Shown: positions 33,299 to 59,449, counted from the stretch's first letter. The stretch is 64,000 nucleotides of DNA from an uncultured Alphaproteobacteria bacterium (GCA_963763485.1 CAVXOW010000008.1:121464-185463), one strand, 5' to 3'. The notes: generated by a model not told the origin, from the sequence alone. Translations and numbers: made by a program.

Positions 33299-33475
33299 GA
33301 CAGCCTCCTCGTGCTGAGTAACAGCCCGTCCAGCGGGCTGGACTCTGCCACAGATCGAGCCCCGCGCCGAGCCGCTTTCGCGCGAGATGCCCGGCGACGA
33401 TGTGTCAAGTTCGCGAAAAAAGGTATGATTGCGGGCGCCAACCGAACGCTGTCACGATAGTTGGGCGAGGTGACC

Positions 33476-35409: not shown

Positions 35410-35716
35410 GTCTCTCCCCGGCAAATCGGCCCGTTATTGTGATTTGGCGAGAAGAGGCTGGCAAGTACTGCCCGCGACTCAGAATTTATTGCTTCGTACT
35501 CATCGACCAGCCAACGCCGCGAGGGCACCCGCGCCAAATCGTCGACGCACGGGAGCGTTCGTTGAGTTCGTCGGTGGCCGGCTTAGTCCGCTCCCGAAGG
35601 AATTGCAGACTTAGTTCAAATTGGTATTGAGGTCCGAGTTTGACCGAAGCGGACATTTACGCTCGTAACGTGAAGGCACTTGCATCTCGACCGATCGCAC
35701 CCTGGCTGCCCGCCTT

Positions 35717-35730
35717 TTGACCCATCGCAA
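35717..35730. promoter_or_regulatory. FixK2/FNR-type box TTGACCCATCGCAA
   Basis: Matches the TTG(A/C)-N6-(T/G)CAA form reported for Bradyrhizobium FixK2. It ends 69 nt upstream of the OsmC-like ATG (35799). Confidence 0.45.
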
Positions 35731-35798
35731 TAGGAGGTAGTCGGCCATTTGGCATCGTGTGCGCGTTCGGCGATCATGCCCGCGGAGAGTGTCTCGCC

Positions 35799-36209
35799 AT
35801 GCTCGAATACAATGTTGTCGCAAAACGCTCAGACTCCCACGGAAGTACGGCCCGATCCAAACAGGCCGAACTTGTGCTCGACACTGACGTGAATGGCAGG
35901 GCGGACGCCTTCAATCCTGCGGAACTGTTTCTGGCGGCGGTCGCCGCCTGCATGATCAAAGGAATCGAACGGGTCGCGCCGATGCTCCACTTCAAGTTCA
36001 GCGGCGTCGAGGTCCGCCTTCATGGCGTTCGTCAAGATAGCCCGCCTTTCATGTCTTCCGTGACCTATGACCTTATCGTCGACACGGATGAAGACGATCG
36101 GCGCCTCGATCTCCTGCATCAGAATGTTCGTAAGTATGGAACGATCTCGAACACGGTAGCCGCAGCAACGAAGCTTGAGGGCAAGATTGTGCGGGCCGGA
36201 ACTGTTTGA
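35799..36209 (+). CDS. OsmC/Ohr family protein
   Basis: The ORF 35757..36209 is trimmed to the ATG at 35799, after GGAGAG. It has the OsmC-like core FNPAELFLAAVAACMIKG. The second conserved Cys appears replaced (RKYGTISNT). Confidence 0.7.
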   Translation: MLEYNVVAKRSDSHGSTARSKQAELVLDTDVNGRADAFNPAELFLAAVAACMIKGIERVAPMLHFKFSGVEVRLHGVRQDSPPFMSSVTYDLIVDTDEDDRRLDLLHQNVRKYGTISNTVAAATKLEGKIVRAGTV

Positions 36210-36233
36210 ACGCGAACCGTTCGAGATGATTCG

Positions 36234-37136
36234 ATGGCGGATCACCATGACGACAAGCAAAGCCTGAACGTTGGACCCGCTTTCCTGTGGGCCGCGGTTC
36301 TGAACACGGCTTATGTCGTGGTCGAAGCTTTATTTGGCTTTTGGGTCGGATCACTAGCTTTGCTGGCTGACGCGGCGCACAACGTCACGGACGTATTCGG
36401 CCTTTTGATCGCGTGGGGAGCATTTGTTGTCGCGCGACGCCGACCGACAGAGTGGCACACCTACGGCCTCGGTCGTGCAACGATCCTGGCTGCTCTCGCC
36501 AATGGAATTGCCTTACTGATTGGAGTAGGCGCGCTTGTTCGCGAAGCGACTGAGCGCATTGCTGCTCCTGAGCCAGTCGCAGCAACAACTGTTCTTTGGG
36601 TCGCAGCAATCGGAATTGCGGTTAAATCGGGGACCGCGCTCCTGTTCGTGAAAGAACGCTCCCACGATATCAATATCGGAGGCGCATTCCTGCACATGGC
36701 AGCGGACGCAGCGGTTTCGGCAGGCGTTGTCGTATCCGCAATCGTGATTTTCCTCACCGGCTGGACGGTTGCCGATCCGGTCGTCGCGATTCTCGTAAGT
36801 GCCGCGATTGGTTGGTCGGCTTTCGGGCTCTCCAAATCGGCGCTCCACTTGAGCCTCGATGGAACTCCGGAAGGCATCAATTTGTCGGCGATCGGGGCGT
36901 CGCTGCGCGCACTTCCCGGCGTCACCGACTTACACGATCTTCACATCTGGGCGCTCAGCACGACATCTAATGCGCTGACGGTTCATCTGGTGATGCCTGA
37001 TGGATGTCCGAGCGATGCCTTTCTCGAACAGACTGCACACGATCTAGAAACACGGTTCCGCGTCGCTCACGTAACGCTCCAAGTGGAGCGAGGAACGGAG
37101 GAGAAATGTCAGTTGGCAGATCCTGCTCGACCGTAA
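36234..37136 (+). CDS. cation diffusion facilitator family transporter (CzcD-like)
   Basis: 300 aa with CDF motifs (SLALLADAAHNVTDV, GAFLHMAADAAVSAGV, DLHDLHIWALS). Confidence 0.85.
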   Translation: MADHHDDKQSLNVGPAFLWAAVLNTAYVVVEALFGFWVGSLALLADAAHNVTDVFGLLIAWGAFVVARRRPTEWHTYGLGRATILAALANGIALLIGVGALVREATERIAAPEPVAATTVLWVAAIGIAVKSGTALLFVKERSHDINIGGAFLHMAADAAVSAGVVVSAIVIFLTGWTVADPVVAILVSAAIGWSAFGLSKSALHLSLDGTPEGINLSAIGASLRALPGVTDLHDLHIWALSTTSNALTVHLVMPDGCPSDAFLEQTAHDLETRFRVAHVTLQVERGTEEKCQLADPARP

Positions 37137-37137
37137 A

Positions 37138-37151
37138 TTGATGCAGATCAG
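37138..37151. promoter_or_regulatory. FNR-type box TTGATGCAGATCAG (9/10 match to TTGAT-N4-ATCAA)
   Basis: It ends 61 nt upstream of the thiolase ATG (37212), immediately after the CDF stop. Confidence 0.45.
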
Positions 37152-37211
37152 CGCCCACTGCGCTGACATTTGATTACTGTGCTGCAGCAGCAAAGTCCGA
37201 GGAGATCGACT

Positions 37212-38399
37212 ATGGCTAATCGCGAAGTTGTGATCTGTTCACCGGTGCGCACAGCGATCGGTACTTATGGCGGCACGCTCAAGGACATGCCGGCGGTCGA
37301 TCTCGGAGCTGTTACGGTTCGCGCAACTCTTGAGCGCGCGAAACTTTCGCCGGGCGATATCGGTACGGTCGTCATGGGCAATGTGATCCAGGCCGGCAAC
37401 AAGATGAATCCGGCGCGCCAGGCCGCGATTCACGGCGGTGTGCCGGTCGATATTCCGGCGATGACAGTCAACCGCGTCTGCGGCTCGGGCGCGCAGGCAA
37501 TTGCGAGCGCAGCGCAGGAAGTGATGCTCGGCTTCATCGATAGCGCGGTCGCCGGAGGAATGGAGAACATGGACCGCGCTCCGTATCTCATGAGTTCTGG
37601 GCGCTGGGGCTACCGCATGGGCGATGCCCAGGTGTTCGATTCAATGCTGATGGACGGCCTCAACGATGCCTTCTCCGGTCAACATTCCGGATGGCACACG
37701 GAGGATCTCGCGAGCTCGCATCAGATTACGCGCGAGCAGCAGGACCGCTGGGCAGAGCGCTCGCAGAAGCGGTTTTCGGCTGCTCAGTCCGCCGGCAAGT
37801 TTGCGGCGGAAATCACGTCAGTCGAAGTCGCGTCGCGTAAGGGCCCGGCAAAATTCGAGAAGGACGAACATAATCGGCCGGACGCCACACTGGAGAGCCT
37901 GTCGAAGCTAAAACCGGCCTTTCGCAAGGATGGCACCATCACCGCTGGCAACGCGCCGGGTCTCAACAGTGGAGCGGCAGCCATGATCGTCGCCGATCGC
38001 GCTTGGGCTGACCACAAGGGCCTCGTGCCGATGGCGCGGCTCGTAGCCTACGGTATCGGCGCCGTCGAGCCGGGTATGTTCGGTTTGGGTCCGGTACCAG
38101 CGGTGAAGCAGGCGCTCGATCGCGCCGGATGGAAAACCTCAGATATTGAACGCATCGAGATCAACGAAGCCTTCGCAGCAATCGCAATTGCGGTCACAAC
38201 GGACCTTGGTTTGGGTCCCGAAATCGTCAACGTCGAAGGCGGTGCCATCGCGCATGGTCACCCGATCGGCGCCAGCGGCGCGGTGCTCACGACCCGACTG
38301 CTGCATTCGATGCAACGCGATGGAATCAAAAAGGGGATCGTCACGCTCTGCATCGGCGGTGGCCAGGGAATTGCACTCGCACTCGAAGCCGTGAATTGA
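37212..38399 (+). CDS. acetyl-CoA C-acetyltransferase (thiolase II)
   Basis: The ORF 37170..38399 is trimmed to the ATG at 37212, after GAGGAG. It has thiolase motifs (VNRVCGSGAQAI, NEAFAA, GGAIAHGHPIGASG, CIGGGQGIA). Confidence 0.9.
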   Translation: MANREVVICSPVRTAIGTYGGTLKDMPAVDLGAVTVRATLERAKLSPGDIGTVVMGNVIQAGNKMNPARQAAIHGGVPVDIPAMTVNRVCGSGAQAIASAAQEVMLGFIDSAVAGGMENMDRAPYLMSSGRWGYRMGDAQVFDSMLMDGLNDAFSGQHSGWHTEDLASSHQITREQQDRWAERSQKRFSAAQSAGKFAAEITSVEVASRKGPAKFEKDEHNRPDATLESLSKLKPAFRKDGTITAGNAPGLNSGAAAMIVADRAWADHKGLVPMARLVAYGIGAVEPGMFGLGPVPAVKQALDRAGWKTSDIERIEINEAFAAIAIAVTTDLGLGPEIVNVEGGAIAHGHPIGASGAVLTTRLLHSMQRDGIKKGIVTLCIGGGQGIALALEAVN

Positions 38400-38491
38400 G
38401 CTGGTGTTGGAAATCCAGCGGATGTTTGCATGATCGCTCCGACGCGGCCGTTGCGGAGAAGAGATTCTAGGGGTTTCAACAGGGTGCGAAT

Positions 38492-38845
38492 ATGAGCAAG
38501 GATTTTGCGGGCATCGCCCACGATGTGATCACCGGTGTCGGGCTGCTACAGAAGAGCGCGCCCGACACGATGAAGGCTTTTGGTGCTCTTTCCATTGCCG
38601 CGACGGCCGCCAAAGCGATCGACACAAAGACGAAGGAGTTGATGGCACTGGCTATTGGCATCGCGGTCCACTGTGATGGCTGCGTCGCCTACCACACCAA
38701 AATGGCTCATCAGCACGGAGCCACGCGCGAGGAGGTCGCCGAGACGGTTGCTCTTGCCGTGTACATGGGTGGTGGACCAGCGGCAGTGTACGGAGGCGAT
38801 GCTTTGCGCGCCTTCGATCAGTTTGCCGGCTCAAAGCCGCAATAA
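38492..38845 (+). CDS. carboxymuconolactone decarboxylase family protein (AhpD-like)
   Basis: 117 aa with the AhpD-type CxxC motif (IAVHCDGCVAYH). Confidence 0.8.
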   Translation: MSKDFAGIAHDVITGVGLLQKSAPDTMKAFGALSIAATAAKAIDTKTKELMALAIGIAVHCDGCVAYHTKMAHQHGATREEVAETVALAVYMGGGPAAVYGGDALRAFDQFAGSKPQ

Positions 38846-38918
38846 ATCGCCGAGCAAGATGCGCAGCCGGTGCCCGTAAGGTCGATGATGAGAGACTGTA
38901 ATGCAGCGGGAGAAGCCA

Positions 38919-39125
38919 ATGGCAATATCAGGAGGATGCGCATTGACCATCCTTCTCACAGATGAGCATCTGCGCAAAATCATCGAGTATCATCTTCTGA
39001 AGGAGGATGAGATAAGCGATCCGGTCAAGCTCAGTCGTGTGGCGCAAAAGTTGTTGGACGCTACCTTGGGGCTTCCGGACCGGGCGTGGCATGACTGGGA
39101 TGAGTGGGGGAAGGGGCTTACATGA
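38919..39125 (+). CDS. small acidic hypothetical protein
   Basis: The ORF 38901..39125 is trimmed to the ATG at 38919, after GGGAGA. I recognise no family. Coding status is uncertain. Confidence 0.3.
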   Translation: MAISGGCALTILLTDEHLRKIIEYHLLKEDEISDPVKLSRVAQKLLDATLGLPDRAWHDWDEWGKGLT

Positions 39126-39537
39126 CCTCTTCGACGAGTGAGGCGCGAGATTGATAACGAGATGCCAAGTATCTTTTGCAACAGCACCTGCCGCGGAACT
39201 AGGTCTCCTTGGCGAGGGCGTGCCCAACGAAACAATCCTCGACGCCAATGATCAAGCATCCCATACTTGTGAGCCGCCCGATCGTTTGCACACCCAAGGG
39301 CGTGCGGCTATGCCGTCCAAGCGAAGTGGTCCTTGATCTACTCGACGGTTTGCTGCCTGGGCCGTTCCAAAAGGAAGACGGACAATTGCTTATCGATCGC
39401 GAGGGGCGTCGTGTTGGCTGATCCATCGGGTGTTAGAGGTCACTTGATCGAAGGGCTGCGAAGTCGTTCGCAATTCTGCGACGCCACGGTCACAGTTTGA
39501 ACTCCTGAACGCCGTCTCGTTCTTTTCGCCGGATCCA

Positions 39538-41337
39538 ATGGACATCATGAACGCTTCGGTCAATTCGCTCGGTTTTCTCACCGATCCAACTCGCTTCATA
39601 TTTTTCACTGGCAAAGGTGGCGTCGGTAAAACGTCGATTGCTTGCGCCGTTGCTTTGGCGCTTGCCGACAGGGGCAAGTCTGTTCTGATAGTCAGCACCG
39701 ATCCGGCATCCAATCTCGATGAGATACTGGATGTGCCCTTGGGCAATCTGCCGGTCGCCGTTCCCGGCACCGAGCATCTCGAGGTCCTCAATATTGATCC
39801 GACCGCCGCCGCCGATGCCTATCGTTCCCGGGTGCTGGCCCAGATGGGAACGGATGCGAGCGATCAAGAGCGGAAAACTGTTCAGGAACAATTGTCGGGC
39901 GCCTGCACGACGGAGATCGCTGCCTTCGACGAGTTTGCCGGCCACTTGGCCAATAATGACGCCCCTTACGATCATGTCGTGTTCGATACTGCACCAACCG
40001 GGCATACGCTTCGTCTCCTGAGCTTGCCCAAGGCCTGGAGCGGCTTTCTCGAGGTCAATGAAGAAGGCGCTTCGTGTTTGGGACCGCATTCTGGCCTCAA
40101 GATGCAGGAAGCTCGCTTCCGGATTGCTTTGGCCGCGCTCAGCGATCCGGCATCGACGACCATTATCCTCGTTGCTCGACCCGAGGTCGGAGCTCTCACC
40201 GAGGCGGCGCGAACCTCGGCGGAGTTGCAAACGCTTGGCCTCTCTAATCAGCGGCTGGTTGTGAACGGCGTATTCAGGGCCAGCGATCGATCGGACGTGA
40301 CAGCAGCGTCGCTCGAAGATCTGGGACAGCGGGCGCTCTCGGAGCTTCCGGCAGTACTCCAGGTGCTCCCGCGCGACGATATCCCGCTTAGGCCTTTCGA
40401 GTTGCTGGGCGTCAATGCATTGCGGTCTTTGCTCGCACCTGAAAGCGCAACTGCTACGCCAACACCAACTCCTCCGGCCCTGCCGTTGGTGGACGACCTT
40501 CCCGGCCTCGACAACCTAATCGACGGTCTGGCGGCAGATGGCAGGGGCCTGATCATGGTCATGGGGAAAGGCGGCGTGGGCAAGACCACGATCGCAGCCA
40601 CTATCGCCGTCGGCTTGGTGCAGCGAGGCCATACGGTTCACCTCAGCACGACAGATCCGGCGGCCCATCTTTCGATCACGCTTACGGAGGCGGTTCCCGG
40701 TTTGCGGGTCGACCGAATTGATCCAAAAGTGGAGACGGAACGCTATGTCGAGAAGGTAATGGCGGAGCGCGGCCGCAAACTTGATGCACAGGGACGAGCT
40801 CTGCTGCGTGAGGATTTGCGCTCTCCATGCACCGAAGAAATCGCCGTTTTTCATGCATTTTCCCGAATCGTGCAGGAAGCGCGAAGCGCATTCGTGGTAC
40901 TGGATACCGCGCCGACAGGTCATACTCTGCTTCTGATGGATGCCGCCGGCGCCTATCACCGGCAGGTGACCCGGCAAATGGAGAACGCGGCGGTTGGTCG
41001 GATCATCACCCCGCTGATGCATCTACAGGATCCGGCCTACACGCACGTCGTGCTGGTGACGTTGGCAGAAGCGACACCTGTGTCGCAGGCGAATGCCCTG
41101 CAAGAGGACCTGCGGCGCGCGCGTATCGAGCCCTATGCCTGGGTCATCAACAAGAGCTTGCTTGCCGCCAGAACGCGTGATCCGCTGCTTACGCAGCGAT
41201 TGCTGGGTGAGCAAAAGCAAATCGATCGCGTGCGCGGATCGATGGCGAAGAATGTGTTCTTTCTGCCCTGGCAGGCGAACCCGCCCGTTGGCTTGCTCGC
41301 GCTCCAAGAATTGGCACGTGGCCGACGTTCCGCATAG
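39538..41337 (+). CDS. arsA: arsenite/antimonite-stimulated ATPase ArsA (two-domain)
   Basis: 599 aa with two P-loops (GKGGVGKTS, GKGGVGKTT). It is collinear with plasmid R773 ArsA as I recall it, including the metalloid-binding Cys contexts SGACTTE, GASCLGP and RSPCTEE and both DTAPTGHT signal-transduction motifs. Confidence 0.9.
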   Translation: MDIMNASVNSLGFLTDPTRFIFFTGKGGVGKTSIACAVALALADRGKSVLIVSTDPASNLDEILDVPLGNLPVAVPGTEHLEVLNIDPTAAADAYRSRVLAQMGTDASDQERKTVQEQLSGACTTEIAAFDEFAGHLANNDAPYDHVVFDTAPTGHTLRLLSLPKAWSGFLEVNEEGASCLGPHSGLKMQEARFRIALAALSDPASTTIILVARPEVGALTEAARTSAELQTLGLSNQRLVVNGVFRASDRSDVTAASLEDLGQRALSELPAVLQVLPRDDIPLRPFELLGVNALRSLLAPESATATPTPTPPALPLVDDLPGLDNLIDGLAADGRGLIMVMGKGGVGKTTIAATIAVGLVQRGHTVHLSTTDPAAHLSITLTEAVPGLRVDRIDPKVETERYVEKVMAERGRKLDAQGRALLREDLRSPCTEEIAVFHAFSRIVQEARSAFVVLDTAPTGHTLLLMDAAGAYHRQVTRQMENAAVGRIITPLMHLQDPAYTHVVLVTLAEATPVSQANALQEDLRRARIEPYAWVINKSLLAARTRDPLLTQRLLGEQKQIDRVRGSMAKNVFFLPWQANPPVGLLALQELARGRRSA

Positions 41338-41446
41338 AAGAGGCACGGAAGTGACTAGGTTGCGGAAGTTGACATTCGCTCATGGGTAATTCCGCTTCTG
41401 ATGCTTAGCGCTCCGCCCGACCAAGCCGATCTTACGGTAACATGAT

Positions 41447-42310
41447 CTAGTGCGACAGCAGCACCGGCACGACCTGGCGTGACAGGATGCTTCGCGTGGC
41501 GCCGCCGAGCACGAATTCGCGCAGGCGCGAATGGCCGTAGGCGCCCATCACCAGGAGATCGGCCTGCACCGACGTGACGTAGGATTCCAGCACCTCGCCG
41601 ACCGGGCGGCCTGCGGACTTGACGTCTTCGAGGACCACAGTGGCACCGTGCTCGGCCAGGTGCCTTGCAAGCTCCTCGCCGGAGCGCTTGCTGTCGATCG
41701 TCTTCTCGCCGCTCACCGTCACGACGCTGACCTGCTTCGCCTTGATCAGCAGCGGCAAGGCATCGGCCACCGCCCGCGCCGCCGTCCGCGAAAAATCCCA
41801 GGCGACCACGACATGATCCAGCGCGAACGGACGGTCGCTCAGCGACTGCGCCGGCATCAACAGCGTCGGGCGGCCCGAGCCGAAGATGATCGCTTCCGCG
41901 AACCAGTACTCCTGAAATGAGTGTTCCGGCGTGCCGATAATGGTCAGGTCGCGCAGCTTCGCGTAGTCGACGAACAGGGCGGCCAGTTCATTCGTAAAGC
42001 AGGTGTCGAAAATCCGCTCGCGAAAGACGCCGCGCGCGGTCGCCTTCTGCTCGAAGGTCGCGAGCAGCTCTTCGGCCTTGAGGCGGCTCTTCCGTGCCTC
42101 GGCGTTGGCCAATGCGTGGATGTCGAACATGGCGTCGCCCAACGGGCTGCCGGGCATGGCCACCCGCACCTCGCAGGCGATCGCCGAGAGCTTCGCGTCG
42201 ATCGCCGCGGCAAAATCGATCGCCTTGTCGATGACGACGCTGAACGAGGGCTCGGGATAACTTGTCAGCGCGAGAAGAATGTCTTTGATCGCGGCATCTT
42301 TAAGAGCCAT
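41447..42310 (-). CDS. universal stress protein (tandem USP domains)
   Basis: The ORF 41447..42415 is trimmed to the ATG at 42310..42308. Two USP-like halves end in DLLVMGAYGHSRLREFVLGGATRSILSRQVVPVLLSH. Confidence 0.8.
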   Translation of the reverse strand: MALKDAAIKDILLALTSYPEPSFSVVIDKAIDFAAAIDAKLSAIACEVRVAMPGSPLGDAMFDIHALANAEARKSRLKAEELLATFEQKATARGVFRERIFDTCFTNELAALFVDYAKLRDLTIIGTPEHSFQEYWFAEAIIFGSGRPTLLMPAQSLSDRPFALDHVVVAWDFSRTAARAVADALPLLIKAKQVSVVTVSGEKTIDSKRSGEELARHLAEHGATVVLEDVKSAGRPVGEVLESYVTSVQADLLVMGAYGHSRLREFVLGGATRSILSRQVVPVLLSH

Positions 42311-42370
42311 GGAAAGCCGTCCAGTCTGTTCAAGGTGGAAGCATGCTGCCTGACGCGGCTTCCATAACCT

Positions 42371-42384
42371 TTGATCAAGAGCAA
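42371..42384. promoter_or_regulatory. FixK2/FNR-type box TTGATCAAGAGCAA (9/10 to TTGAT-N4-ATCAA)
   Basis: It lies in the divergent usp/MBL intergenic region, 61 nt from the usp ATG and 109 nt from the MBL start. Confidence 0.5.
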
Positions 42385-42492
42385 AGCCGGGGAGCCGGCC
42401 GTTGACGCACGTCAAGCTCCCTGAGGTACAATCGGCCTAAAGTGGCGCCAAACCGCGGGCTTGCATCGGGCCGCGCCAAGGTGTGAGGGAAC

Positions 42493-43859
42493 GTGGCACT
42501 TCAACTGGGTTTTCTGGGCGGCACCGGGACGGTCACCGGCTCGAAATACGCACTGCAGAACGGCAGGGATGTTGCCCTCGTCGACTGCGGGCTGTTTCAG
42601 GGCTTCAAGACACTGCGTTTGAAAAACTGGGCGCCGCTGCCGATCGACCCGCGTAAAATTTCCTCGGTCGTTCTCACCCACGCCCATCTCGATCATTCCG
42701 GCTATCTGCCGCTCCTGGTGCGCAACGGATTTCGCGGCCCCATCTTCGCGTCGCGACCGACGCTCGAACTGTGCCGCATCCTGCTGCCCAACTCCGGCTT
42801 CCTGCAGGAGAAGGACGCCGAGTTCGCCAACCGTCACGGCTTCTCGAAACACAAGCCGGCGCTGCCGCTCTACACGGCGGACGACGCGAGACGCAGCCTC
42901 GACTATTTCAAGACGGTATCGTTCGACGACAGCCATGCGCTGACGCGCTCGCTGTCGTTTCGCATGCATCGCGCCGGGCACATCCTTGGCGCCGCTTCGC
43001 TGCAGATCGAAGCCGCTGGCACGACGATCGTGTTCTCCGGCGATCTCGGCCGCTACAACGACCCGACCATGGTCGATCCCGTCGGCTTCGATCGCGCCGA
43101 CTATCTGGTCGTGGAATCCACCTATGGCGATCGGCATCATTCGGACGTCGATCCGGAACAGGCGATTGGCGACGTCGTCGAGAGGACGATCGGGCGCGGC
43201 GGCACGGTGGTGATGCCGGCGTTCGCGGTCGGCCGGACCCAGAGCCTGCTGTTCCATCTCGCGCAGCTCAAGGACAAGGGACGGCTCGCCAACGTGCCCA
43301 GTCTTCCTCGACAGCCCGATGGCAGAAGACGCCAGCGACATCTTCTGCGATGATGTCGGCGAGCACAGGCTGTCGATGAGCGCCTGCCGCCGCGCCTGCG
43401 GCGTCGCGCGCTTTGTCCGCAGCGTCGACGAGTTCGAAGGCCCTCATGACCAATCCGATGCCGAAGGTGATCATCTCGGCGAGCGGCATGGCGACCGGCG
43501 GCCGCGTGCTGCATCACCTGAAGCACTACGCGCCCGACCCGCGCAACACGATCCTGTTCGCCGGCTTCCAGGCCGGCGGTACGCGGGGCGCGTCCATGGT
43601 CGGCGGCGCCGACAGTATCAAGATTCACGGCGCCTACGTGCCGGTGCGCGCCGAGGTGAAAAATCTCGACATGCTGTCGGGCCACGCCGACGCCGGCGAA
43701 ATCCTGCGCTGGCTGAAAGGCTTCAAATCGCCGCCAAGGATGACCTTCGTCACCCACGGCGAACCGGCGGCGTCCGACGCGCTGCGCCGGCGCATCGAGG
43801 AGGAGCTCAAGTGGCCCTGCACCGTGCCGGAGCACGGCCAACAGGTCGAACTGGCATGA
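42493..43859 (+). pseudogene. MBL-fold metallo-hydrolase of the beta-CASP (RNA-metabolising) type, two +1 frame changes
   Basis: HxHxDH motif THAHLDHSG. Frame 1 reads to ..RLANVP. Frame 2 gives VFLDSPMAEDASDIFCDDVGEHRLS (shift at GTGCCCAGTC, about 43297-43301). Frame 0 gives SKALMTNPMPKVIISASGMATGGRVLHHLK..LSGHAD (shift at GAGTTCG, about 43430-43433). Confidence 0.75.
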
Positions 43860-45397
43860 GCGACGACGGACCAGCCGGCGCACTGCCGCCGCACGACGCG
43901 GCGAACACCGTTCGCGCGCGGCGGCTCGGCATCGACACGCAATACGAAGCCATCATCTTCATGCACAAGGATTGCCGGGTCTGCCGCTCGGAAGGCTTTG
44001 CCGCGCTGACCCGTGTCCTGCTGACAGCCAATGGCCGCAGAGTCATCGCGACGCTTTACCAGATCACGAGCCCGCTGGTCCGTCCTGACGAGGCCATCCT
44101 GTCCGAGTCGGCCTGGAAGCGGCTCGCCCTGAAGGACGGCGAGCACATCACCATCGGCCATCCGCCGCAGCTCGATTCACTGAGCCATCTGCGCAGCCGC
44201 ATCTACGGCAACGACTTAAGCGAGCCCGCCTTCCATGCCATCATCGGCGACATCGTCGACGGCCAGTATTCCGACATCCACCTGTCGTCGTTCCTGACCG
44301 CCTGCGCCTCGCCGCCGCTGAACCACCAGGAGGTGCTGGCGCTTACGCACGCAATGGTCGAGGCCGGCGATCGCCTGAAATGGCCGGCCGGCACCGTCGC
44401 CGACAAGCACAGCGTCGGCGGCCTGCCCGGCAACCGCACGACGCCGATCATCGTCCCGATCGTCGCAGCGCTCGGCATCATGATGCCGAAGACCTCGTCG
44501 CGCGCGATCACTTCGCCTGCCGGCACCGCCGACACCATGGAGACCATGGCGCCGGTCGATCTCGACAACGATGCGATCCGGCGCGTGGTCGAGCGCGAAG
44601 CCGGCTGCATCGTCTGGGGCGGTGCGATCAATCTCAGTCCGGCCGACGACATTTTGATCCGGGTCGAGCGCGCGCTCGATATCGACAGCGAAGGACAGAT
44701 GATCGCCTCGGTGCTGTCGAAGAAGATCGCCGCCGGCTCGACCCACGTCGTGCTCGATCTGCCCGTCGGCCCGACCGCGAAGGTGCGCACCGCGCGCGCT
44801 GCGCAGCAGCTCGCGGACGGACTGACCAATGTCGGCGCCGAGTTCGGGCTGAAGACAAGGATTGTGCCGGGCGACGGGCTGCAGCCGATCGGCCGCGGCA
44901 TCGGTCCCGCGCTCGAAGCCCGCGACGTGCTTCAGGTACTGCGCGGCGAGGCCACCGCGCCGCAGGATTTGCGCCAGCGCGCGCTCGCGCTGGCCGCCGC
45001 GCTGCTGGAGCTCACCGAGATCTGCCCAGCGGGCCGCGGCGAAGCGATCGCGGCCGATGTGCTCGACAGCGGACGCGCCTGGCGCAAGTTCCAGCGCATC
45101 TGCGAGGCCCAGGGCGGGATGCGGACACCGCCGGTCTCGCGCCAGCAGCGTCCCGTGCTCGCCGAGCGGCCGGGCAAGGTGCGCGCGATCGACAACCGCC
45201 GCATTGCGCGGCTCGCCAAGCTTGCCGGCGCACCGGACGACAAGGCCGCCGGCATCGACATGCATGTGCGTGTCGGCGACCTGGTCGCGAGCGGCCAGCC
45301 ACTGTGCACGGTCCACGCCGATTCGCCGGGCGAACTCGCCTATGCGTTCGACTTCGCCGAGGCCAACCGCGACATCATTGCGGTCGGCGAGCCATGA
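43856..45397 (+). CDS. thymidine phosphorylase family protein, long type with N-terminal extension (AMP-phosphorylase-like)
   Basis: The ORF 43319..45397 is trimmed to the ATG at 43856, which overlaps the MBL stop (ATGA). It is 513 aa with the glycosyl-transferase family 3 core (DKHSVGGLPGNRTTPIIVPIVAA, KTSSRAITSPAGTADTME, SVLSKKIAAG) after a ~90-aa N-terminal domain. Confidence 0.85.
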   Translation: MSDDGPAGALPPHDAANTVRARRLGIDTQYEAIIFMHKDCRVCRSEGFAALTRVLLTANGRRVIATLYQITSPLVRPDEAILSESAWKRLALKDGEHITIGHPPQLDSLSHLRSRIYGNDLSEPAFHAIIGDIVDGQYSDIHLSSFLTACASPPLNHQEVLALTHAMVEAGDRLKWPAGTVADKHSVGGLPGNRTTPIIVPIVAALGIMMPKTSSRAITSPAGTADTMETMAPVDLDNDAIRRVVEREAGCIVWGGAINLSPADDILIRVERALDIDSEGQMIASVLSKKIAAGSTHVVLDLPVGPTAKVRTARAAQQLADGLTNVGAEFGLKTRIVPGDGLQPIGRGIGPALEARDVLQVLRGEATAPQDLRQRALALAAALLELTEICPAGRGEAIAADVLDSGRAWRKFQRICEAQGGMRTPPVSRQQRPVLAERPGKVRAIDNRRIARLAKLAGAPDDKAAGIDMHVRVGDLVASGQPLCTVHADSPGELAYAFDFAEANRDIIAVGEP

Positions 45398-46296
45398 CAG
45401 CGCCCATGCTGATTGCGATGCCCGGCAACGAAGCCATGGCGCAATCGATCGCACGCATCCTCGGCGCCGATGTGGGCCAACTCGAGCTGCGCGCATTTCC
45501 CGACGGCGAGGCCTACCTGCGTTTCGCCACCGAGCTTAAGGATCGCCGAATCGCGCTGGTCTGCACGCTCGATCACCCCGATGCGAAGATGCTGCCGCTA
45601 CTGTTTGCGGCCGCTGCCGCGCGCGACCTCGGCGCCAGTCAGGTCGGTCTGGTCGCGCCCTATCTGGCCTATATGCGGCAAGACCGCCGCTTCAAGCCGG
45701 GCGAAGCCGTGACCTCACGCGAGGTCGCGCGACTGTTGTCGGGCGCGTTCGACTGGCTGGTCACCGTCGATCCGCACCTGCATCGTTACACGTCGCTTGC
45801 CGAGATCTATCGCATCCCGACGCGCGTCGCCCATGCCGCCCCACTGGTATCGCAATGGATCAAGGCCAACGTACCGCAGGCGCTGGTGATCGGCCCCGAC
45901 GGCGAGAGCGAGCAGTGGGTTTCCGCCGTCGCCAACGATGCCGGCGCGCCGTTCACCGTGCTTCAGAAGGTCCGCAATGGCGATCGCGACGTCGAGATCA
46001 CCATGCGCGATCTCGGGCAACTCGGCGAGCGCACGCCGGTGTTCGTCGATGATATCATCTCATCAGGCCGCACCATGGCCGAGGCGGTTCGGCTGGTGGC
46101 CGCCCGCACCCCGCAGCGTCCCGTCTGCATCGCCCTGCACGGGCTGTTCGCCGACAACTCCGACCGGCTGCTGTCGGCCTCGGGCGCGCGCATCGTCACG
46201 TCCAACACGGTCACCCACCCGAGCAACGCCCTCGACGTAGCGCCACTGCTGGCTGCAGGCGTTGGCGAACTTGCACAAGCACCGCCGCCCACGTAG
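45394..46296 (+). CDS. ribose-phosphate pyrophosphokinase-like protein
   Basis: The ORF 44380..46296 is trimmed to the ATG at 45394 (ATGA overlap). It carries Prs-like motifs (AFPDGE, APYLAYMRQDRRF, VDPHLH, VDDIISSGRTM). Confidence 0.8.
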   Translation: MTAPMLIAMPGNEAMAQSIARILGADVGQLELRAFPDGEAYLRFATELKDRRIALVCTLDHPDAKMLPLLFAAAAARDLGASQVGLVAPYLAYMRQDRRFKPGEAVTSREVARLLSGAFDWLVTVDPHLHRYTSLAEIYRIPTRVAHAAPLVSQWIKANVPQALVIGPDGESEQWVSAVANDAGAPFTVLQKVRNGDRDVEITMRDLGQLGERTPVFVDDIISSGRTMAEAVRLVAARTPQRPVCIALHGLFADNSDRLLSASGARIVTSNTVTHPSNALDVAPLLAAGVGELAQAPPPT

Positions 46297-46322
46297 ACCG
46301 TCGCGGGGACGTGGCGGGCGGA

Positions 46323-46982
46323 ATGAAACTGATCATCTTCGACTTCGATGGCACGCTGGCGGACAGTCGCAACCTGATCATCGAGGCGCACCGGCGGGTG
46401 TTTTCCCAATTCGGACTGCCGGTGCCGCCCCCGGAAGCGAGCCTCGCGCTGATCGGGCGCTCGCTCGAGCTAGTGCTCGCCGAACTCGCCGGACCCGATG
46501 CGCCGGTCGCGGCGATGACGACGGCCTATCAGCCGGTCGTGAAGCAGCTGCGCGCCGATCCCGCATTTGCCGACCTGCCCTTTGCCGGCGTCAATGAGCT
46601 GCTCCTCGAGCTGGGGGCACGGAAAGACCTTCGTCTCGGCATCGCCACCGGGCATATCTCGAGCGCGATCGAGCCGGCGCTTGCGACATTCGGCTGGCGC
46701 GAGCTGTTCTGCACCGTACAGAGCGCCGACAAAGCGCCGTCGAAGCCGCACCCCGGCATGATCCTGCAGGCGCTCGCCGAGGCCGACACCGCAGCCGACG
46801 ATGCCGTCATGATCGGCGACACCGCCTTCGACATGGAGATGGCGCGCGCGGCCGGTGTTGCCGCGGTCGGCGTCGCCTGGGGTTATCATCCGCGCGATCG
46901 GCTTATCGCGGCAGGTGCGGACGGGGTCGCCGAGACGATCGAGGATTTGCGCACGCGGCTGCTGGACGGAGGCGATCGCTAA
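46323..46982 (+). CDS. HAD family hydrolase (phosphoglycolate phosphatase-like)
   Basis: Motif I is IIFDFDGTLADS and motif IV is MIGDTAFDMEMARAAG. The start is ATG 46323 or GTG 46311. Confidence 0.8.
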   Translation: MKLIIFDFDGTLADSRNLIIEAHRRVFSQFGLPVPPPEASLALIGRSLELVLAELAGPDAPVAAMTTAYQPVVKQLRADPAFADLPFAGVNELLLELGARKDLRLGIATGHISSAIEPALATFGWRELFCTVQSADKAPSKPHPGMILQALAEADTAADDAVMIGDTAFDMEMARAAGVAAVGVAWGYHPRDRLIAAGADGVAETIEDLRTRLLDGGDR

Positions 46983-47141
46983 GCTGATTCTCTAGCACTG
47001 GAATGCCTTCGGCGTTCCGGAGCCAGCCGAGCATCTCCGAAAAAAAGCACATCGGAGTGCAAATAGAACGGCATTGGCGTACGGTCCTCCGTCCAGGGGT
47101 CAGGGAGAGCCCCCGCGCAAAACTCGCAAGGGGCAGTCAAG

Positions 47142-47525
47142 ATGAAATCAGCATTGGTCGCAGCGGCCGCCATGACGGCGCTGTCGCCGGTCTCAACTGC
47201 GCTCGCACAGACCCAGTTGCCGACGACGACCATCGTCGCGCCGAAGCCCAAACCAAAGCCGGCTGTGGTGACTCGTGCAGCACGATCGGACTCGGTGTCG
47301 ATCATGCCGGAGCATCCGGACCCTGAAACACCCCATGTCCGCGCCAAGGACTGGAATGCGCCCGGCGTGATGAACCTGAACTACATGACGGAAGCGCAAT
47401 TCGTGGCATTTCAGGCCGCGCACCCCACCGCGGTGTTCTGGGGACGCTGCTATGCGGGCCAGGATCCCGACCTCAATATCCGGGCCTTCCTGAGGCGTCG
47501 GGTTCCGTTCGGTTGCGGCGGCTGA
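47142..47525 (+). CDS. exported hypothetical protein
   Basis: 127 aa with the signal peptide MKSALVAAAAMTALSPVSTALA and a Pro/Lys linker (PKPKPKP). I recognise no family. Confidence 0.5.
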   Translation: MKSALVAAAAMTALSPVSTALAQTQLPTTTIVAPKPKPKPAVVTRAARSDSVSIMPEHPDPETPHVRAKDWNAPGVMNLNYMTEAQFVAFQAAHPTAVFWGRCYAGQDPDLNIRAFLRRRVPFGCGG

Positions 47526-47658
47526 CGGCTCGGAACCGCTCCGAAGTTGCAACAGAACAAGCGAGGGCTTTTCCGGTTTGAAATTCCCACCCGGATTGGG
47601 CACAAACCATCCTGCGCGGCCAGTGCGCCATCTTTCATTCAAAGCGGAACGCGCAAAT

Positions 47659-48427
47659 ATGCGACGTCAATTCGCGGTGCTGTTGGGAACACTCGCCCTG
47701 TTGGCGCCTGAGGTGGCGCTGGCGCAGGTTCCGAGCGAGCTGCTGCCACGGAACCTGTCGCCATGGGGCATGTTCCTCAACGCCGACATCGTGGTCAAAG
47801 CCGTGATGGTGGGGCTTGCCCTCGCCTCGCTGGTGACCTGGACGGTGTGGCTCACGAAAACCATCGAACTGCGGCGCGAGACCACGCGCGCGAGACGGCG
47901 ACTTCGCGTGATCGAGCAGGGCGGCGCGCTGCGCGACGCCGTCCGCGCCTGCGGCAGCGACACCGACGCCGTCGCCCAGCTCATCCTGTCGACGGCACGT
48001 GAGAGCGAGCTGTCGGGCGGCACGTTCGACGCGGATTTCAAGGAGCGGGTGGCGCTGCGGCTCGAGCGGGTCGAGGCGGCGATGCAGCGCCAGATTTCGC
48101 GCGGCATCGGCGTGCTGGCGACGATCGGCGCCACGGCGCCGTTCGTCGGCCTGTTCGGCACGGTGTGGGGCATCATGAATTCGTTCATCGGCATCTCGGA
48201 ATCCCACACCACCAACCTCGCCGTGGTCGCGCCCGGCATTGCCGAGGCGCTGCTCGCCACCGCCATGGGCCTGGTCGCCGCGATCCCCGCGGTCGTGATC
48301 TACAACCATCTGGTCCGCGTCATCGGCGGCTACCGCGCGTTGCTCGGCGACGCCTCGGCGCAGCTGCTCCTGATGATCAGCCGCGGACGCACCGACCGCG
48401 CGCCGGTCGGCGCGCGCCGCGGAGTAG
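47659..48427 (+). CDS. exbB: ExbB (MotA/TolQ/ExbB proton channel); no in-frame stop, reads through into exbD
   Basis: The ORF 47578..48960 is trimmed to the ATG at 47659 (signal-peptide type ExbB). The channel motif is [42 protein letters not shown]. The expected stop TAG at 48425..48427 is only in the +1 frame. Confidence 0.75.
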
Positions 48428-48432
48428 CTGTC

Positions 48433-48869
48433 ATGGCTGTGCGGCTCGGCTCGCGTTCCGGCGGCGACGACCTCGAAGTCCAGCACGAGATCAACGTCAC
48501 GCCGTTCATCGACGTCATCCTGGTGCTCCTGATCATCTTCATGGTGGCGGCGCCGCTCGCGACCGTCGACATCGGCGTCAACCTGCCGTCGAGCACCGCG
48601 CCGCGAACAGCCGCGGCCGGACAAGCCGGTATTCGTGACCGTCAAGCCCGACGGCACCGTCGCGGTCGGCGAGACGATGGTGACGCGCGAGACGCTGTCG
48701 CCGGCGCGCTCGATACCGCCACCAACAATCACAAGGACGAGGTGATCTTTGTCCGCGGCGACAAGGAGCTGGCCTACGGCGACCTGATCGCAGGTCATGA
48801 ACCTTTGCGCGACGCCGGCTACCTCAAGCTCGCGCTGGTCGGGCTGGAAGCGGCCCGGCAAAGCCATGA
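48433..48869 (+). pseudogene. exbD: ExbD/TolR with at least two internal frame changes
   Basis: The N-terminus [32 protein letters not shown] is in frame 1. The middle part [29 protein letters not shown] is in frame 2 (about 48600-48700). It returns to frame 1 as [27 protein letters not shown]. The likely natural stop TGA at 48867..48869 is in frame 0. Confidence 0.7.
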
Positions 48870-49620
48870 CAGCGCTGGCGCTGCATTTTCCGGAACGGCG
48901 CGGGATCACGCGCTGGATGCTCGCCGCCGTGGCGATCGTCATCGCACATGGCGATCGTGATCGGCGCGCTGGCGCTGTGGTATACGCGCGCACCGCCGGA
49001 GGAGAATCTCATTCCAGCGATCGTGGTGAGCATCGTACCGGCGGCGCCACTGTCTCCGATGGAAAACGATCAGCCAGTCGCGGCCGAGCAAACAACGCAT
49101 ATCGATCCGACGCCCGAGCCGTCCAAAGTCGAGACGAAGGTCGAGCCGCCGCCGGAAGAGATCAAACCTCCACCGCCACGCCCGGCGGAGATCGCTCTTC
49201 CGAAGCCAGAGCCAAAGCCGGTCGAAAGAAAATCCGTCGAAAAGAGGCCTGTCGAAAAGAGGCGCGTCGAAAAATTGTCTCCGCCGCAGGAAGCGCACGA
49301 GAGGGCTGCGGCGCGCGAAGCCTCGCGACAATCGAGCGTCGCGGCTTCGAACAACTACAATTCACTGGTCATTGGGCAGCTCGAACGCGCCAAGGGATAC
49401 CCGCCGGGCGGCGCCGACTGGAAAAACCTCCGTGGCGTTTACGGTCAGCAGTGCGGGCAGCCTCTTGGATGTCCATGTCACGAAGTCATCGGGCAATTCA
49501 ATTCTCGACCAGGCAGCGCTCGACATCGTGCGGCGTGCATCGCCCTTTCCGCATTTCCCGCCGGAGATGACTCAACCGCAGACATCGTTTTCCTGGGAGC
49601 GATACTTCGCGGCGCGCTGA
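48866..49620 (+). pseudogene. tonB: TonB energy transducer with two frame changes
   Basis: The N-terminus [28 protein letters not shown] is in frame 2. The TM and Pro-rich spacer ([38 protein letters not shown]) are in frame 0 from about 48950. The C-terminal domain (GKTSVAFTVSSAGSLLDVHVTKSSGNSILDQAALDIVRRASPFPHFP) is in frame 1 from about 49410. Confidence 0.7.
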
Positions 49621-50939
49621 GGCGCTAGGCGATTTGCCCGCTCGAACTGGCGCAGCAGGCGGTTGCCGCGCTCGGCCGCGGCATCGAGCGCCTGCTGCGC
49701 CGTCTTCTTGCCGGAAAAGGCCTGCTCGAGCTCGTCCTCAATGGCGGCGCGGATCAGCACGAACGAGCCGAGCCGGAGGCCTCTCGAATTGTCGGTCGGC
49801 GGCTTGTAGGTGATCTGCTCGATCGAAATCGCGGTGCCGGGATTGCGATCGTAGAAGCCTTGCGCGCGGCGTCAGTTCGAAGGCGGCGCGCGTGATCGGA
49901 AGATAGCCGGTTTTCTGGTGCCACCAGGCCTGCACGTCCGGCCGCGACAGGAAGGCGAAGAAACGCGCGACGCCTTTGTATTCGTCTGCCGGCCGGTCGC
50001 GCAGCACCCACAGCGTGGCGCCGCCGATGATCGTGTTCTGCGGCGCGCCGGGAACGTCGGGCCAGTACGGCATCATGCCGTAGCCGACCTGAACTTGCCT
50101 TGGCGAGGATGTCGGCGCGCGTCGCCGACGAGCCGAGGAAGATGCCGCACTCGCCGCGCTGGAAGCGCGGCTCGGCCTTGGTGTCGCGGCCGCTGTAGTC
50201 GAACAGCTTGGTCTTCTGCCACTCGGCGAGCTTGCCGATGTGGCGGACCTCGAGCGGATTGTTGATGGTGAGCAACGCATCGAGCCCGCCGAGGCCGTTG
50301 GCTGCGCGTCGCGACCGGCAGTTGTGAAGCGCGGAGAAATTCTCGACGTTGACCCAGGACGGCCAGTGCGTGGTGAAGCCGCAGGCCGCGCCTGACGCGC
50401 GCAGCGCTGCGGCCGCGACGCCGACCTCGGGCCAGGTTTTCGGCGGAACGTCCGGGTTGAGGCCGGCGGCGCGAAACAGCTGCTTGTTGTAATAGAGGAT
50501 CGGGGTCGACGAGTTGAACGGAAACGACAGCATGTTGCCGGCGACGTCGGTGTAATAGCCGGTGACCGCGGGCAGATAGGCGCTCGGGATCGAACGTCTC
50601 CTTCGCATCGCGCATCAACTCGTACACCGGATAGATCGCGCCCTTCGCCGCCATCATCGTCGCGGTCGCGATCTCGTTGACCTGGACGATGGCCGGCTGG
50701 GTCTGCGAGCGGAAGGCGAAGATCGCCGCCGTCGTAGTCTCGGTGTAGTTGCCCTTGTAGACCGGGACGACGCGGTAGTCCGACTGGGTCGCGTTGAAGT
50801 CGGATGCGAGCTTTTCGAGCTGGCGGCCAAGCTCGCCCGGCATCGCGTGCCACCAGATCACGTCCGTCGTGGCCAACGCCGGCGCCGCATGCATCAGCGC
50901 CATGAACACGGCCGCGACCTTCAGCGTGAAATTCCGCAT
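49572..50939 (-). pseudogene. extracellular solute-binding protein family 1 (UgpB-like), at least four frame changes
   Basis: The N-terminus [33 protein letters not shown].. (ORF 50073..50939) continues in other frames. The successive segments are [80 protein letters not shown] and [52 protein letters not shown] possible lost stop lies at about 49626. No cognate permease or ATPase genes are adjacent. Confidence 0.65.
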
Positions 50940-51196
50940 GTCCCTTCGACGCCGTCAAAGCGCCGCCTGCCCTGTGCCGCAAGCCGGCCCGCGATCGGAC
51001 ATCGCGGTGGTCGGGCCGTGCGGTAGCAAACCTTTGAAATAACTCGCTAATCGTACGGCGCCGCGTGCCCCTGCGCCGACCGCGGCCGTAAGCCCCCTGC
51101 TCCGTTTGCCATTCCGTCGTTTGGTGACCGGACAGCCGCGATCTCCCGATAGCAAAACCGGCGTCCATTCGATAGAGTTTCGTCGCGGTCAAAGTC

Positions 51197-51210
51197 TTGA
51201 GAAGACGCAA
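51197..51210. promoter_or_regulatory. FixK2-type box TTGAGAAGACGCAA
   Basis: Matches TTG(A/C)-N6-(T/G)CAA. It ends 67 nt upstream of the DctP-like GTG start (51277). Confidence 0.4.
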
Positions 51211-51276: not shown

Positions 51277-52266
51277 GTGCAAACGGCGAGACATCTGGTC
51301 TTCCAGACTGTCGCGGTCTTGTGGGCGGCCGTCATGTTTTCGGCGGCGCCGGCGGACGCGCGCGAATTCCGGGCCGCGGACACCCAGGCCGAGGATTATC
51401 CGACGGTCCAGGCCCTGAACTACATGGGCAAGCTGATCGCCGAGCGCACGAACGGCCGCCACCAGATCAAGGTGTTTCACAGCCGCCAGCTCGGTGAAGA
51501 GAAGGAAACCATCGAGCAGACCCGGGCCGGCGCCATCGACCTCAATCGCACCAACGTGGCGCCGATCGGCGAGTTCGTGCCGCTCGCCAATGTGCTGGCG
51601 ATGCCGTTCCTGTTCCGCTCGATCGATCACCTGCACAGCGTGCTGGACAGCCAGATCGGCCAGGAAATTCTGGACAGCTTTGCACCGCACGGCTTTGTCG
51701 GGTTGACCTATTACGACTCCGGCGCACGCTCGATCTACGACAGCGTGCGGCCGATCAAGTCGGTCGCCGACATGAAGAACCTCAAGATCCGGGTTCAGCA
51801 GTCCGACCTGATGGTCAAGATGATCAGCGCGCTCGGAGCCCAACCGATCGCGATGCCCTATGGCCAGGTGCTCACCGGCCTCGCTACCAAGCTGATCGAC
51901 GGCGCCGAGAACAACTGGCCCTCCTTCGTCACCACAGGCCATTTCAAGTACGCCGGCTACTACACGCTGACCGAGCACACCATGTCGCCCGAGGTACTGG
52001 TCATGTCGCGCAAGGCCTGGGAATCCTTAACTCCCGACGATCAGAAGATCTTCAAGCAGGCGGCGATGGAATCCAACATCTACATGCGCGAGCGGTGGAA
52101 GGCGCTCGAGGACAGGTCACGCCGCGAGGCCGAGGCCGCCGGCATCATGATCATCAAGGACTTCGATCGCAAATCGTTCGAGGACGCGATGGGCGCCATT
52201 TACAAGGAGGCGGCGAACGATCCCGCCATCGCCCGATACGTCGACCGCATCAAGAAAATGCAGTGA
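51277..52266 (+). CDS. TRAP-type DctP family solute-binding protein (no DctQM partners nearby)
   Basis: 329 aa with a GTG start and a signal peptide ending APADA. It shows the DctP-family pattern ([53 protein letters not shown]). Confidence 0.8.
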
Positions 52267-52278
52267 CCGGTTAACCCC

Positions 52279-56058: not shown

Positions 56059-56093
56059 CTGACACGATCGACAGCAAAGAGACACCACGAGCG

Positions 56094-57668: not shown

Positions 57669-57716
57669 ATTTCCGGCCCCGGATCACCTCGGGGGCTCCC
57701 CTCCCGAAACGCTCCC

Positions 57717-59434: not shown

Positions 59435-59449
59435 CGCAAGGAGATCAAG

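Follow-up and report, generated by a model that had tools for sequence, protein, structure and literature searches.

A compact island of candidate FixK/FNR-type boxes ahead of four predicted transcription units in an uncultured Bradyrhizobium-like bacterium

We analyzed a 64,000-nucleotide stretch of DNA from an uncultured Alphaproteobacteria bacterium (GCA_963763485.1, CAVXOW010000008.1:121464-185463), which is called the window below and whose positions are counted from its first letter. A compact island at 35.7-47 kb carries four 14-bp boxes, numbered 1, 2, 3, and 3b, that are probably functional sites of the CRP/FNR family (we put the probability at about 0.78). It also seems likely, at somewhat lower confidence, that they respond to oxygen by way of a FixK2/FnrN-type protein. 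The classical site of the family is TTGAT-N4-ATCAA, a 14-bp imperfect palindrome, and its FixK2 variant is TTGA/C-N6-T/GCAA. An initial annotation had proposed that a stress block, a module of universal stress protein (usp) and nucleotide genes, and a module of DctP and a dual kinase belong to one low-oxygen regulon. Our results support the first two as members, but not the DctP-dual-kinase module, because its box (box 4) scored low, is followed by no -10 element, and is degenerate or absent in relatives. The five boxes are as follows.

35717-35730, plus strand: box 1, TTGACCCATCGCAA, first base at -82 from the ATG of an OsmC-like gene; candidate FixK/FNR site in the promoter of OsmC and a cation-diffusion-facilitator (CDF) gene
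37138-37151, plus strand: box 2, TTGATGCAGATCAG, first base at -74 from the ATG of a thiolase gene; candidate FixK/FNR site in the thiolase promoter
42371-42384, minus strand: box 3, TTGATCAAGAGCAA, read on the minus strand as TTGCTCTTGATCAA, first base at -74 from the usp ATG; candidate class II site
42402-42415, plus strand: box 3b, a perfect palindrome (TTGACGCACGTCAA) with its first base at -91 from the MBL GTG; candidate class II site for the MBL-TP-PRS-HAD operon
51197-51210, plus strand: box 4, TTGAGAAGACGCAA, ahead of DctP; judged a chance match

The initial annotation had given the sequences and coordinates of boxes 1, 2, 3, and 4 exactly, and its description of their match quality was also accurate: the boxes at 35717, 42371, and 51197 fit TTG[AC]-N6-[TG]CAA, and the one at 37138 matches TTGAT-N4-ATCAA at 9 of 10 positions. 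Its scan of intergenic DNA by eye missed box 3b, the sole site in the window that matches all eight TTGA/TCAA core bases. The strict form TTG[AC]-N6-[TG]CAA is thus met at 35717, 42371, 42402, and 51197, and the box at 37138 deviates by a final G for A. All boxes are intergenic and lie 60-108 nt ahead of a start codon. From box end to start codon, we counted 68 nt to the OsmC ATG (35799), 60 nt to the thiolase ATG (37212), 60 nt to the usp ATG (42310, minus strand), 108 nt from box 3 to the MBL GTG (42493), and 66 nt from box 4 to the DctP GTG (51277), while box 3b, in the same usp/MBL intergenic region as box 3, ends 77 nt ahead of the MBL start. The distances reported earlier were each greater by 1, a difference of counting convention only.

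The strict form occurred nine times in the window compared with 3.9 +/- 1.9 times in dinucleotide shuffles, and none of 100 shuffles reached nine; by this measure, the previous estimate of about one such match per window fell short by a factor of four. On a gene map based on Pfam and on G+C content at third codon positions (GC3), 11.4% of the window (7.3 kb) was intergenic, and four of the nine strict-form matches fell there, with the other five in coding or pseudogene DNA. Sites with seven of the eight TTGA/TCAA core bases numbered 25, of which 6 were intergenic, an enrichment of about two-fold. This count was too blunt to decide the matter and was therefore replaced by a symmetric weight matrix trained on 24 putative FixK2 boxes of Bradyrhizobium diazoefficiens (PMC9104804 Table 2), a set independent of the window. 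The four highest matrix scores in the 64 kb were those of 42371 (17.0 bits), 42402 (16.4), 37138 (15.9), and 35717 (14.4), and all four sites were intergenic. Under the same matrix, 23 of the 24 training sites scored 14.1-21.0 bits and one scored 8.3. No match of at least 14 bits was found in the coding DNA of the window, where about 0.9 was expected; the highest coding score rounds to 14.0 bits, just below the threshold. In intergenic DNA, four such matches were observed against 0.117 expected from first-order Markov simulations, and none of 1000 simulations reached four. Boxes 1, 2, 3, and 3b are within the score range of accepted sites and above the coding background. Box 4 scored 8.8 bits (about rank 30), and 24 coding positions were equal or better. 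The comparison with coding DNA that the initial annotation had suggested, once run, thus found no equally good matches for the boxes at 35717, 37138, and 42371, but 24 for the DctP box.

These figures bear on the possibility that a short degenerate palindrome was simply matched by chance at every box, with no regulatory role for any of them. Such a reading could draw on the roughly 3.9 strict-form sites expected per window, the five matches in coding or pseudogene DNA, and the merely two-fold intergenic enrichment of the 7-of-8 core sites (6/25). Moreover, box 4 behaves like background, and for this box chance is the explanation that we prefer. The exclusively intergenic position of the four top matrix sites speaks against chance for the others, as do two results of the comparisons with relatives given below: orthologues have the same or newly arisen boxes ahead of them even where the surrounding DNA has diverged or cannot be aligned, and boxes are enriched nine-fold upstream of MBL orthologues. 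We therefore consider it extremely improbable that chance accounts for the whole set, and return to boxes 1, 2, 3, and 3b as CRP/FNR-family sites. The genes that they precede, and one -10-like hexamer, are listed here.

35753-35758, plus strand: CATCGT, -10-like hexamer inferred 22 nt after box 1
35799-36209, plus strand: OsmC-like gene, predicted transcription unit 1 (Pfam OsmC)
36234-37136, plus strand: CDF gene, predicted transcription unit 1 (Pfam Cation_efflux, ZT_dimer)
37212-38399, plus strand: thiolase gene, predicted transcription unit 2 (Pfam, NCBIfam)
38492-38845, plus strand: carboxymuconolactone-decarboxylase-family (CMD) gene, predicted transcription unit 2 (Pfam, NCBIfam)
39538-41337, plus strand: ArsA gene, operon partner of the thiolase gene in relatives (Pfam)
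41447-42310, minus strand: tandem-domain universal stress protein gene (usp), predicted transcription unit 3 (Pfam Usp)
42493-43859, plus strand: MBL/beta-CASP/RMMBL hydrolase gene, first gene of predicted transcription unit 4 (42493-46982)
43856-45397, plus strand: AMP-phosphorylase-like gene of the thymidine phosphorylase family (TP), unit 4
45394-46296, plus strand: ribose-phosphate diphosphokinase-like gene (PRS), unit 4
46311-46982, plus strand: HAD hydrolase gene, unit 4

The conservation of the boxes was investigated in related contigs and genomes, which are denoted by L numbers where they need to be told apart. Between usp and MBL, boxes 3 and 3b were identical at 14 of 14 positions in L081 (GCA_030841365.1, a contig 96% identical to the window) and in L169, another close relative, while the flanking intergenic bases varied and the usp-proximal flank of L169 was only about 60% identical. 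Homologues of usp that are 72-75% identical stand in other neighborhoods where synteny is lost, yet boxes adjoin them (at 9933 in L082 and 9265 in L083). In L082, TTGCGCTGGATCAA lies 54 nt before usp and is accompanied by five further intergenic boxes; in L083 and L084, TTGTCCTGGATCAA stands ahead of a cytochrome-b/usp pair. The forest-soil contig L082 (1-17171, usp 75% identical) is itself a dense box island, with six intergenic matches of 14.0-18.7 bits, and the neighbors of its boxes are P-type ATPases (one with a hemerythrin domain), an ABC exporter, cytochrome b, VIT1, an amino-acid permease, and FtsH.

For the divergent gene, a survey was made of 80 loci (L001-L080) with MBL orthologues of 49-66% identity from alpha-, beta-, and gamma-proteobacteria. 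Within 250 nt upstream of MBL, perfect-core boxes numbered 13 against about 1.4 expected from the locus-wide density. Matrix matches of at least 14 bits in the same interval numbered 18, in 16 of the 80 loci, which corresponds to 0.92 per kb compared with 0.10 per kb elsewhere, the nine-fold enrichment mentioned above. The gene order MBL-TP(-PRS) was kept in 42 of the 80 loci, often behind an FNR-type box. The box at 42371 had been put forward as the element of both usp and MBL. For usp this assignment is supported; the MBL operon is more likely served by box 3b, the overlooked palindrome at 42402.

At full length, the MBL gene encodes 454 aa with MBL, beta-CASP, and RMMBL domains, as in the intact copy of L001. 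Compared with that copy and with L081, two 1-nt insertions (near 43296 and 43436) interrupt the gene in the window. With these frameshifts recognized, the TP-like gene starts at 43856 (513 aa) and not at 43319. An exact look-up of the 286-aa MBL reading gave no match, and that reading is the frameshifted product. The TP-like protein is of the archaeal, AMP-phosphorylase-like type (PDB 4GA5, E = 1.7e-104), and its score of 482 bits against the TIGR03327 AMP_phos model is below the cutoff of 535. No functional description of the MBL-TP-PRS module was found in the literature searched.

The OsmC-CDF pair behind box 1 was kept in L089, L091-L093, L095, L133, and L135. In L170, OsmC stands directly before the thiolase gene, and the best-conserved block upstream of OsmC is TTGATCCATCGCAA, which is nearly identical to box 1. 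In L091 (OsmC 82% identical), TTGATTCAGATCAG occurs 66 nt before the ATG, though the upstream DNA is otherwise non-alignable with the window. The DNA upstream of OsmC in L092, L093, L095, and L135 is coding or does not align and is hence uninformative on box 1. A metagenome scan with the CDF protein returned 80 loci, a handful of them with OsmC upstream and none with a thiolase gene downstream.

Thiolase and ArsA genes are adjacent in L169 and in L171-L175. In L169, TTGATGCAGATCAG is identical to box 2 and lies 64 nt before the thiolase ATG, with a methyltransferase gene upstream instead of CDF. In the five Bradyrhizobium genomes L171-L175 (thiolase 89% identical, thiolase-ArsA operon), a perfect box, TTGATCCATCTCAA, is present 79 nt before the ATG, and CATAAT follows it after 21 nt. 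As a separate observation, L169 has a second copy of TTGACGCACGTCAA at 9775-9788, 226 nt upstream of the thiolase gene; the sequence downstream of this copy, ATCGG..C.GAAAGTG, is similar to ATCGGCCTAAAGTG at the MBL promoter (window 42402-42443), and the extra copy looks like a duplicated promoter cassette. Across all these comparisons, boxes 1, 2, 3, and 3b are conserved upstream of orthologues, or replaced there by apparent equivalents.

In class II CRP/FNR promoters, the box lies near -41.5 in place of a -35 element, and the -10 hexamer follows about 22 bp past the box. The -10 elements of alpha-proteobacteria are degenerate. Of the four supported boxes, three (1, 3, and 3b) are followed at exactly 22 nt by -10-like hexamers: CATCGT after box 1, CAGCAT after box 3 toward usp (minus strand), and TAAAGT after box 3b toward MBL. 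At the OsmC promoter of L170, TATCAA likewise stands exactly 22 nt after the box. Class II geometry is thus plausible for the supported boxes as far as spacing can tell. The earlier suggestion of class II promoters with short leaders would fit boxes 1, 3, and 3b; at box 2 the hexamer is poor, and at box 4, where TGCCCG occupies the position, there is none. The constant distance between box and start codon that had also been claimed holds roughly in the window, because the predicted leaders are 26-43 nt long, but it is not strict, since orthologues have 64, 66, 79, and 88 nt; the spacing from box to hexamer holds in orthologues while this distance varies. A sigma-70 promoter scan of the window was uninformative because class II promoters lack a -35 element.

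The centers of boxes 3 and 3b are 31 bp apart, or three helical turns, and the predicted usp and MBL promoters stand back to back. With this spacing, each box would lie near -41.5 relative to its own promoter and near -72.5 relative to the opposite one, which suggests a back-to-back design with two boxes.

Several points weigh against regarding the four boxes as functional sites. The closest relatives are highly similar overall, so that conservation in them is of little weight alone. The GCAA half-site of boxes 1 and 3 is weaker than TCAA. Box 2 has CAG in place of CAA at its end, the hexamer at its -10 position is a poor one (TTACTG), and a terminator-like hairpin at 37148-37166 overlaps its right arm. 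No CRP/FNR-family regulator gene was found among the open reading frames (ORFs) scanned in the window. Finally, the window genes were matched to published regulon members (bll3115-bll3117, blr3815, and bll4644 of B. diazoefficiens) by annotation names and operon content, so that their orthology is putative.

Considering the hairpin, box 2 could be no promoter element at all: its right arm would belong to the intrinsic terminator of OsmC-CDF, and the thiolase gene would be expressed by readthrough or from another promoter. The hairpin, TCAGCGC-CCACT-GCGCTGA followed by CATTTGATT, begins within box 2 directly past the CDF stop codon and has a 7-bp stem with 5 G-C pairs, as this explanation would require. 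However, terminator-like matches are no commoner in the window than in shuffles (11 vs 12.9), and the T tract is poor. In L169, which lacks an upstream CDF gene, the stem is degraded while the 14-mer is intact, and in Bradyrhizobium a perfect box occupies the equivalent place. Furthermore, terminator and promoter roles are not mutually exclusive. We therefore regard a terminator in place of a promoter element as very unlikely, and box 2 is kept as a candidate FixK/FNR site of the thiolase promoter.

From the presence of the boxes, their exceptional matrix scores, their intergenic location, and their conservation, we infer the following mechanism. A dimer of a FixK2- or FnrN-type activator would occupy each box, centered about 41.5 bp upstream of the predicted transcription start, and under low oxygen the bound activator would contact RNA polymerase in the class II manner. 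Four units would thereby be switched on: OsmC-CDF; thiolase-CMD, possibly with ArsA; usp; and MBL/beta-CASP-TP-PRS-HAD.

The best-studied counterpart is the FixK2 regulon of B. diazoefficiens (FixLJ-FixK2 cascade), which has the same box form, TTGA/C-N6-T/GCAA. The published first bases of its boxes cluster at -66 to -89, compared with -74 to -91 in the window (PMC9104804 Table 2). The kinds of targets also match. Deletion of fixK2 lowers the expression of bll3117-bll3116-bll3115 (TP, PRS, and MBL), which have a putative box at -74, by 6.6- to 30.6-fold, and the HAD hydrolase gene blr3815 and the usp gene bll4644 are FixK2-box-associated as well (PMC9104804). At 0.5% oxygen, both proteins and transcripts of this set are induced (PMC6515984). 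Divergent intergenic regions bearing boxes are also known in that regulon. In contrast, the window has the order MBL-TP-PRS-HAD, divergent from usp, and two boxes 31 bp apart instead of one. OsmC-CDF and thiolase(-ArsA) were not found among the FixK2 targets in two published tables. A literature search for the box sequence of the Bradyrhizobium thiolase gene gave no match, and one for a link between FixK2 and acetyl-CoA acetyltransferase returned nothing usable.

A second counterpart is the low-oxygen-induced lxa locus of Burkholderia cenocepacia (BCAM0275-BCAM0323), which contains six universal stress proteins, the MBL-superfamily protein BCAM0300 of about 51 kDa, and enzymes of the polyhydroxybutyrate (PHB) pathway, and for which the FixK/Anr-like regulator BCAM0049 has been proposed but not demonstrated (PMC6127331). 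Like the stretch at 35.7-47 kb, it is a contiguous island that combines universal stress and MBL proteins; it differs in being about 50 genes long and in belonging to another class of Proteobacteria. A search of a plasmid collection with 35-57 kb of the window gave short matches only, at 70-80% identity, and hence no annotated close relative; 59 of the 88 records were Burkholderia replicons.

The approach used here is that of the work on alpha-proteobacterial FNR/FixK regulons (Dufour, Kiley, Donohue 2010; PMC2908626), in which a conserved TTGA-N6-TCAA is sought upstream of orthologues. Those regulons center on respiratory and haem genes (ccoNOQP, hemN, rdxB), none of which is in the window, and uspA is predicted there to be a core member of the FNR regulon. 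Because putatively homologous targets have been published, the low-oxygen regulon proposed in the initial annotation corresponds to the known FixK/FNR regulon in a new genome. As to that genome, the DctP and thiolase proteins of the window are 70-75% and 89% identical, respectively, to Bradyrhizobium proteins, and the nearest match in the genome collection is a Xanthobacteraceae metagenome-assembled genome.

The boxes might nevertheless be real CRP/FNR sites for another paralogue and another signal, for example a nitric oxide sensor of the NnrR/Dnr type, a cAMP-CRP-type protein, or a repressing FixK1-type protein. TTGA-N6-TCAA is common to many members of the family, of which B. diazoefficiens alone has 16 (PMC9104804), and the ORFs scanned in the window yielded no regulator gene that would narrow the choice; the sequence of a box does not distinguish between paralogues or between the signals that they answer. 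On the other hand, the gene set (USP, MBL/TP/PRS, and HAD) matches FixK2-dependent, microoxia-induced genes and the Burkholderia low-oxygen locus, the thiolase may relate to the PHB-pathway genes of low-oxygen regulons, and the predicted class II spacing would suit an activator better than a repressor. Considering this, another paralogue with another signal appears unlikely, and oxygen through a FixK2/FnrN-type protein is the reading that we retain.

The DctP box remained as a candidate for the same regulon. It was rejected because of its background-level score, the missing -10-like element, and its loss in relatives of 80% identity or less. An identical box 4 was found only in the near-identical relatives L085 and L169. 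In L086 (DctP 88% identical), the sequence is the degenerate TTGAGAAGACGCAG, and in L087 (DctP 80%) and B. canariense L088 (73%) the box is absent; the matrix scan detected no match of at least 12 bits upstream of DctP in L085-L088. It could still be a weak, lineage-specific FixK/FNR site that joins the DctP-kinase module to the regulon, as first proposed. It does fit TTG[AC]-N6-[TG]CAA in intergenic DNA close to the GTG, a cytochrome bd oxidase is encoded downstream of the module, and among the published putative FixK2 boxes there is one with a score of just 8.3 bits. However, the 24 coding positions of equal or better score, the lack of a hexamer at class II spacing, and the decay of the box from L086 to L088 all argue otherwise, and a neighboring repeat, CGATAG-N17-CGATAG, persists to L087 while the box does not. 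Box 4 is, in our judgment, quite unlikely to be functional, and we treat it as a chance match.

The repeat just mentioned is direct (51147-51152 and 51170-51175), lies upstream of DctP, and is kept in L085, L086, and L087; the OmpR-type response regulator whose gene lies downstream might bind to it. The order of genes at 51277-62688 is kept in B. canariense (L088) and in a metagenomic relative (L087): DctP comes first, then two sensor kinases, of which one has DUF3369, an OmpR-type regulator, an ECF sigma factor, a small ORF, and finally the cytochrome bd oxidase. The window has extra DsbD-like and redoxin genes before the oxidase. Neither the count of core bases nor the matrix scan of the window found a FixK/FNR-type box before the cytochrome bd oxidase genes. 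The counterpart of the 1259-aa dual kinase (52279-56058) in L087 and L088 is a pair of overlapping genes of 688-694 aa and 581 aa.

According to Pfam, the gene calls of the island and its surroundings are DUF3237 on the minus strand; OsmC, CDF, thiolase, CMD, and ArsA on the plus strand; Usp on the minus strand, divergent from MBL, TP, PRS, and HAD; and, further on, ExbB/ExbD and a frameshifted UgpB-like gene on the minus strand, divergent from DctP, the 1259-aa histidine kinase, and the OmpR-type response regulator. The interval between DUF3237 and usp (35425-41446) is hypervariable. In the window it holds OsmC-CDF, thiolase-CMD, and ArsA; its GC3 is 0.58-0.70 compared with 0.82-0.88 elsewhere, and its place is taken by a methyltransferase and thiolase-ArsA in L169 and by AraC, an FAD/BBE oxidase, and a PNPOx-family gene in L081. 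The amidase gene (33461-34847) is split into two overlapping ORFs, and the UgpB-like binding-protein gene (49740-51040, minus strand) is fragmented, though intact (437-463 aa) in L085, L086, L088, and L169. The oddities of the amidase, UgpB-like, and dual-kinase genes may be either real pseudogenes and a real fusion or indels of a long-read assembly. Upstream, at 15991-24644, is a tandem array of six paralogous genes for Peripla_BP_6 solute-binding proteins (411-473 aa each), in which the G+C content is lower (0.59-0.60) and the AT skew strongly positive (+0.14 to +0.17). The internal 14-mer TTCAACAAGATCAA, shared by four of the six, produces repeated weak matrix matches.

We put forward a tentative two-part hypothesis, which as a whole is possible at best. 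The MBL/beta-CASP ribonuclease-like, AMP-phosphorylase-like, phosphoribosyl pyrophosphate (PRPP)-synthetase-like, and HAD phosphatase genes may constitute an uncharacterized operon for RNA and nucleotide salvage in hypoxic dormancy, under FNR/FixK/Anr control and widespread in Proteobacteria. In addition, the DUF3237-usp interval may be a hotspot where copied FixK-box cassettes draw acquired genes into the low-oxygen regulon; this idea comes from the low GC3 of the OsmC-to-ArsA block and from the second TTGACGCACGTCAA of L169, with its similar -10 region, before the thiolase gene.

The current understanding of FixK/FNR regulation is unchanged by these results. What they provide is a regulatory annotation for an uncultured Bradyrhizobium-like soil bacterium, in which four units with about 10-11 genes would form a CRP/FNR-type regulon that is probably responsive to low oxygen, and from which one plausible-looking site, the DctP box, has been removed. 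OsmC-CDF and thiolase(-ArsA) are new candidate members of such a regulon, backed by the perfect box in cultured Bradyrhizobium. In alpha-, beta-, and gamma-proteobacteria alike, boxes accompany the MBL/TP/PRS module, which would therefore appear to be part of a conserved hypoxia response.

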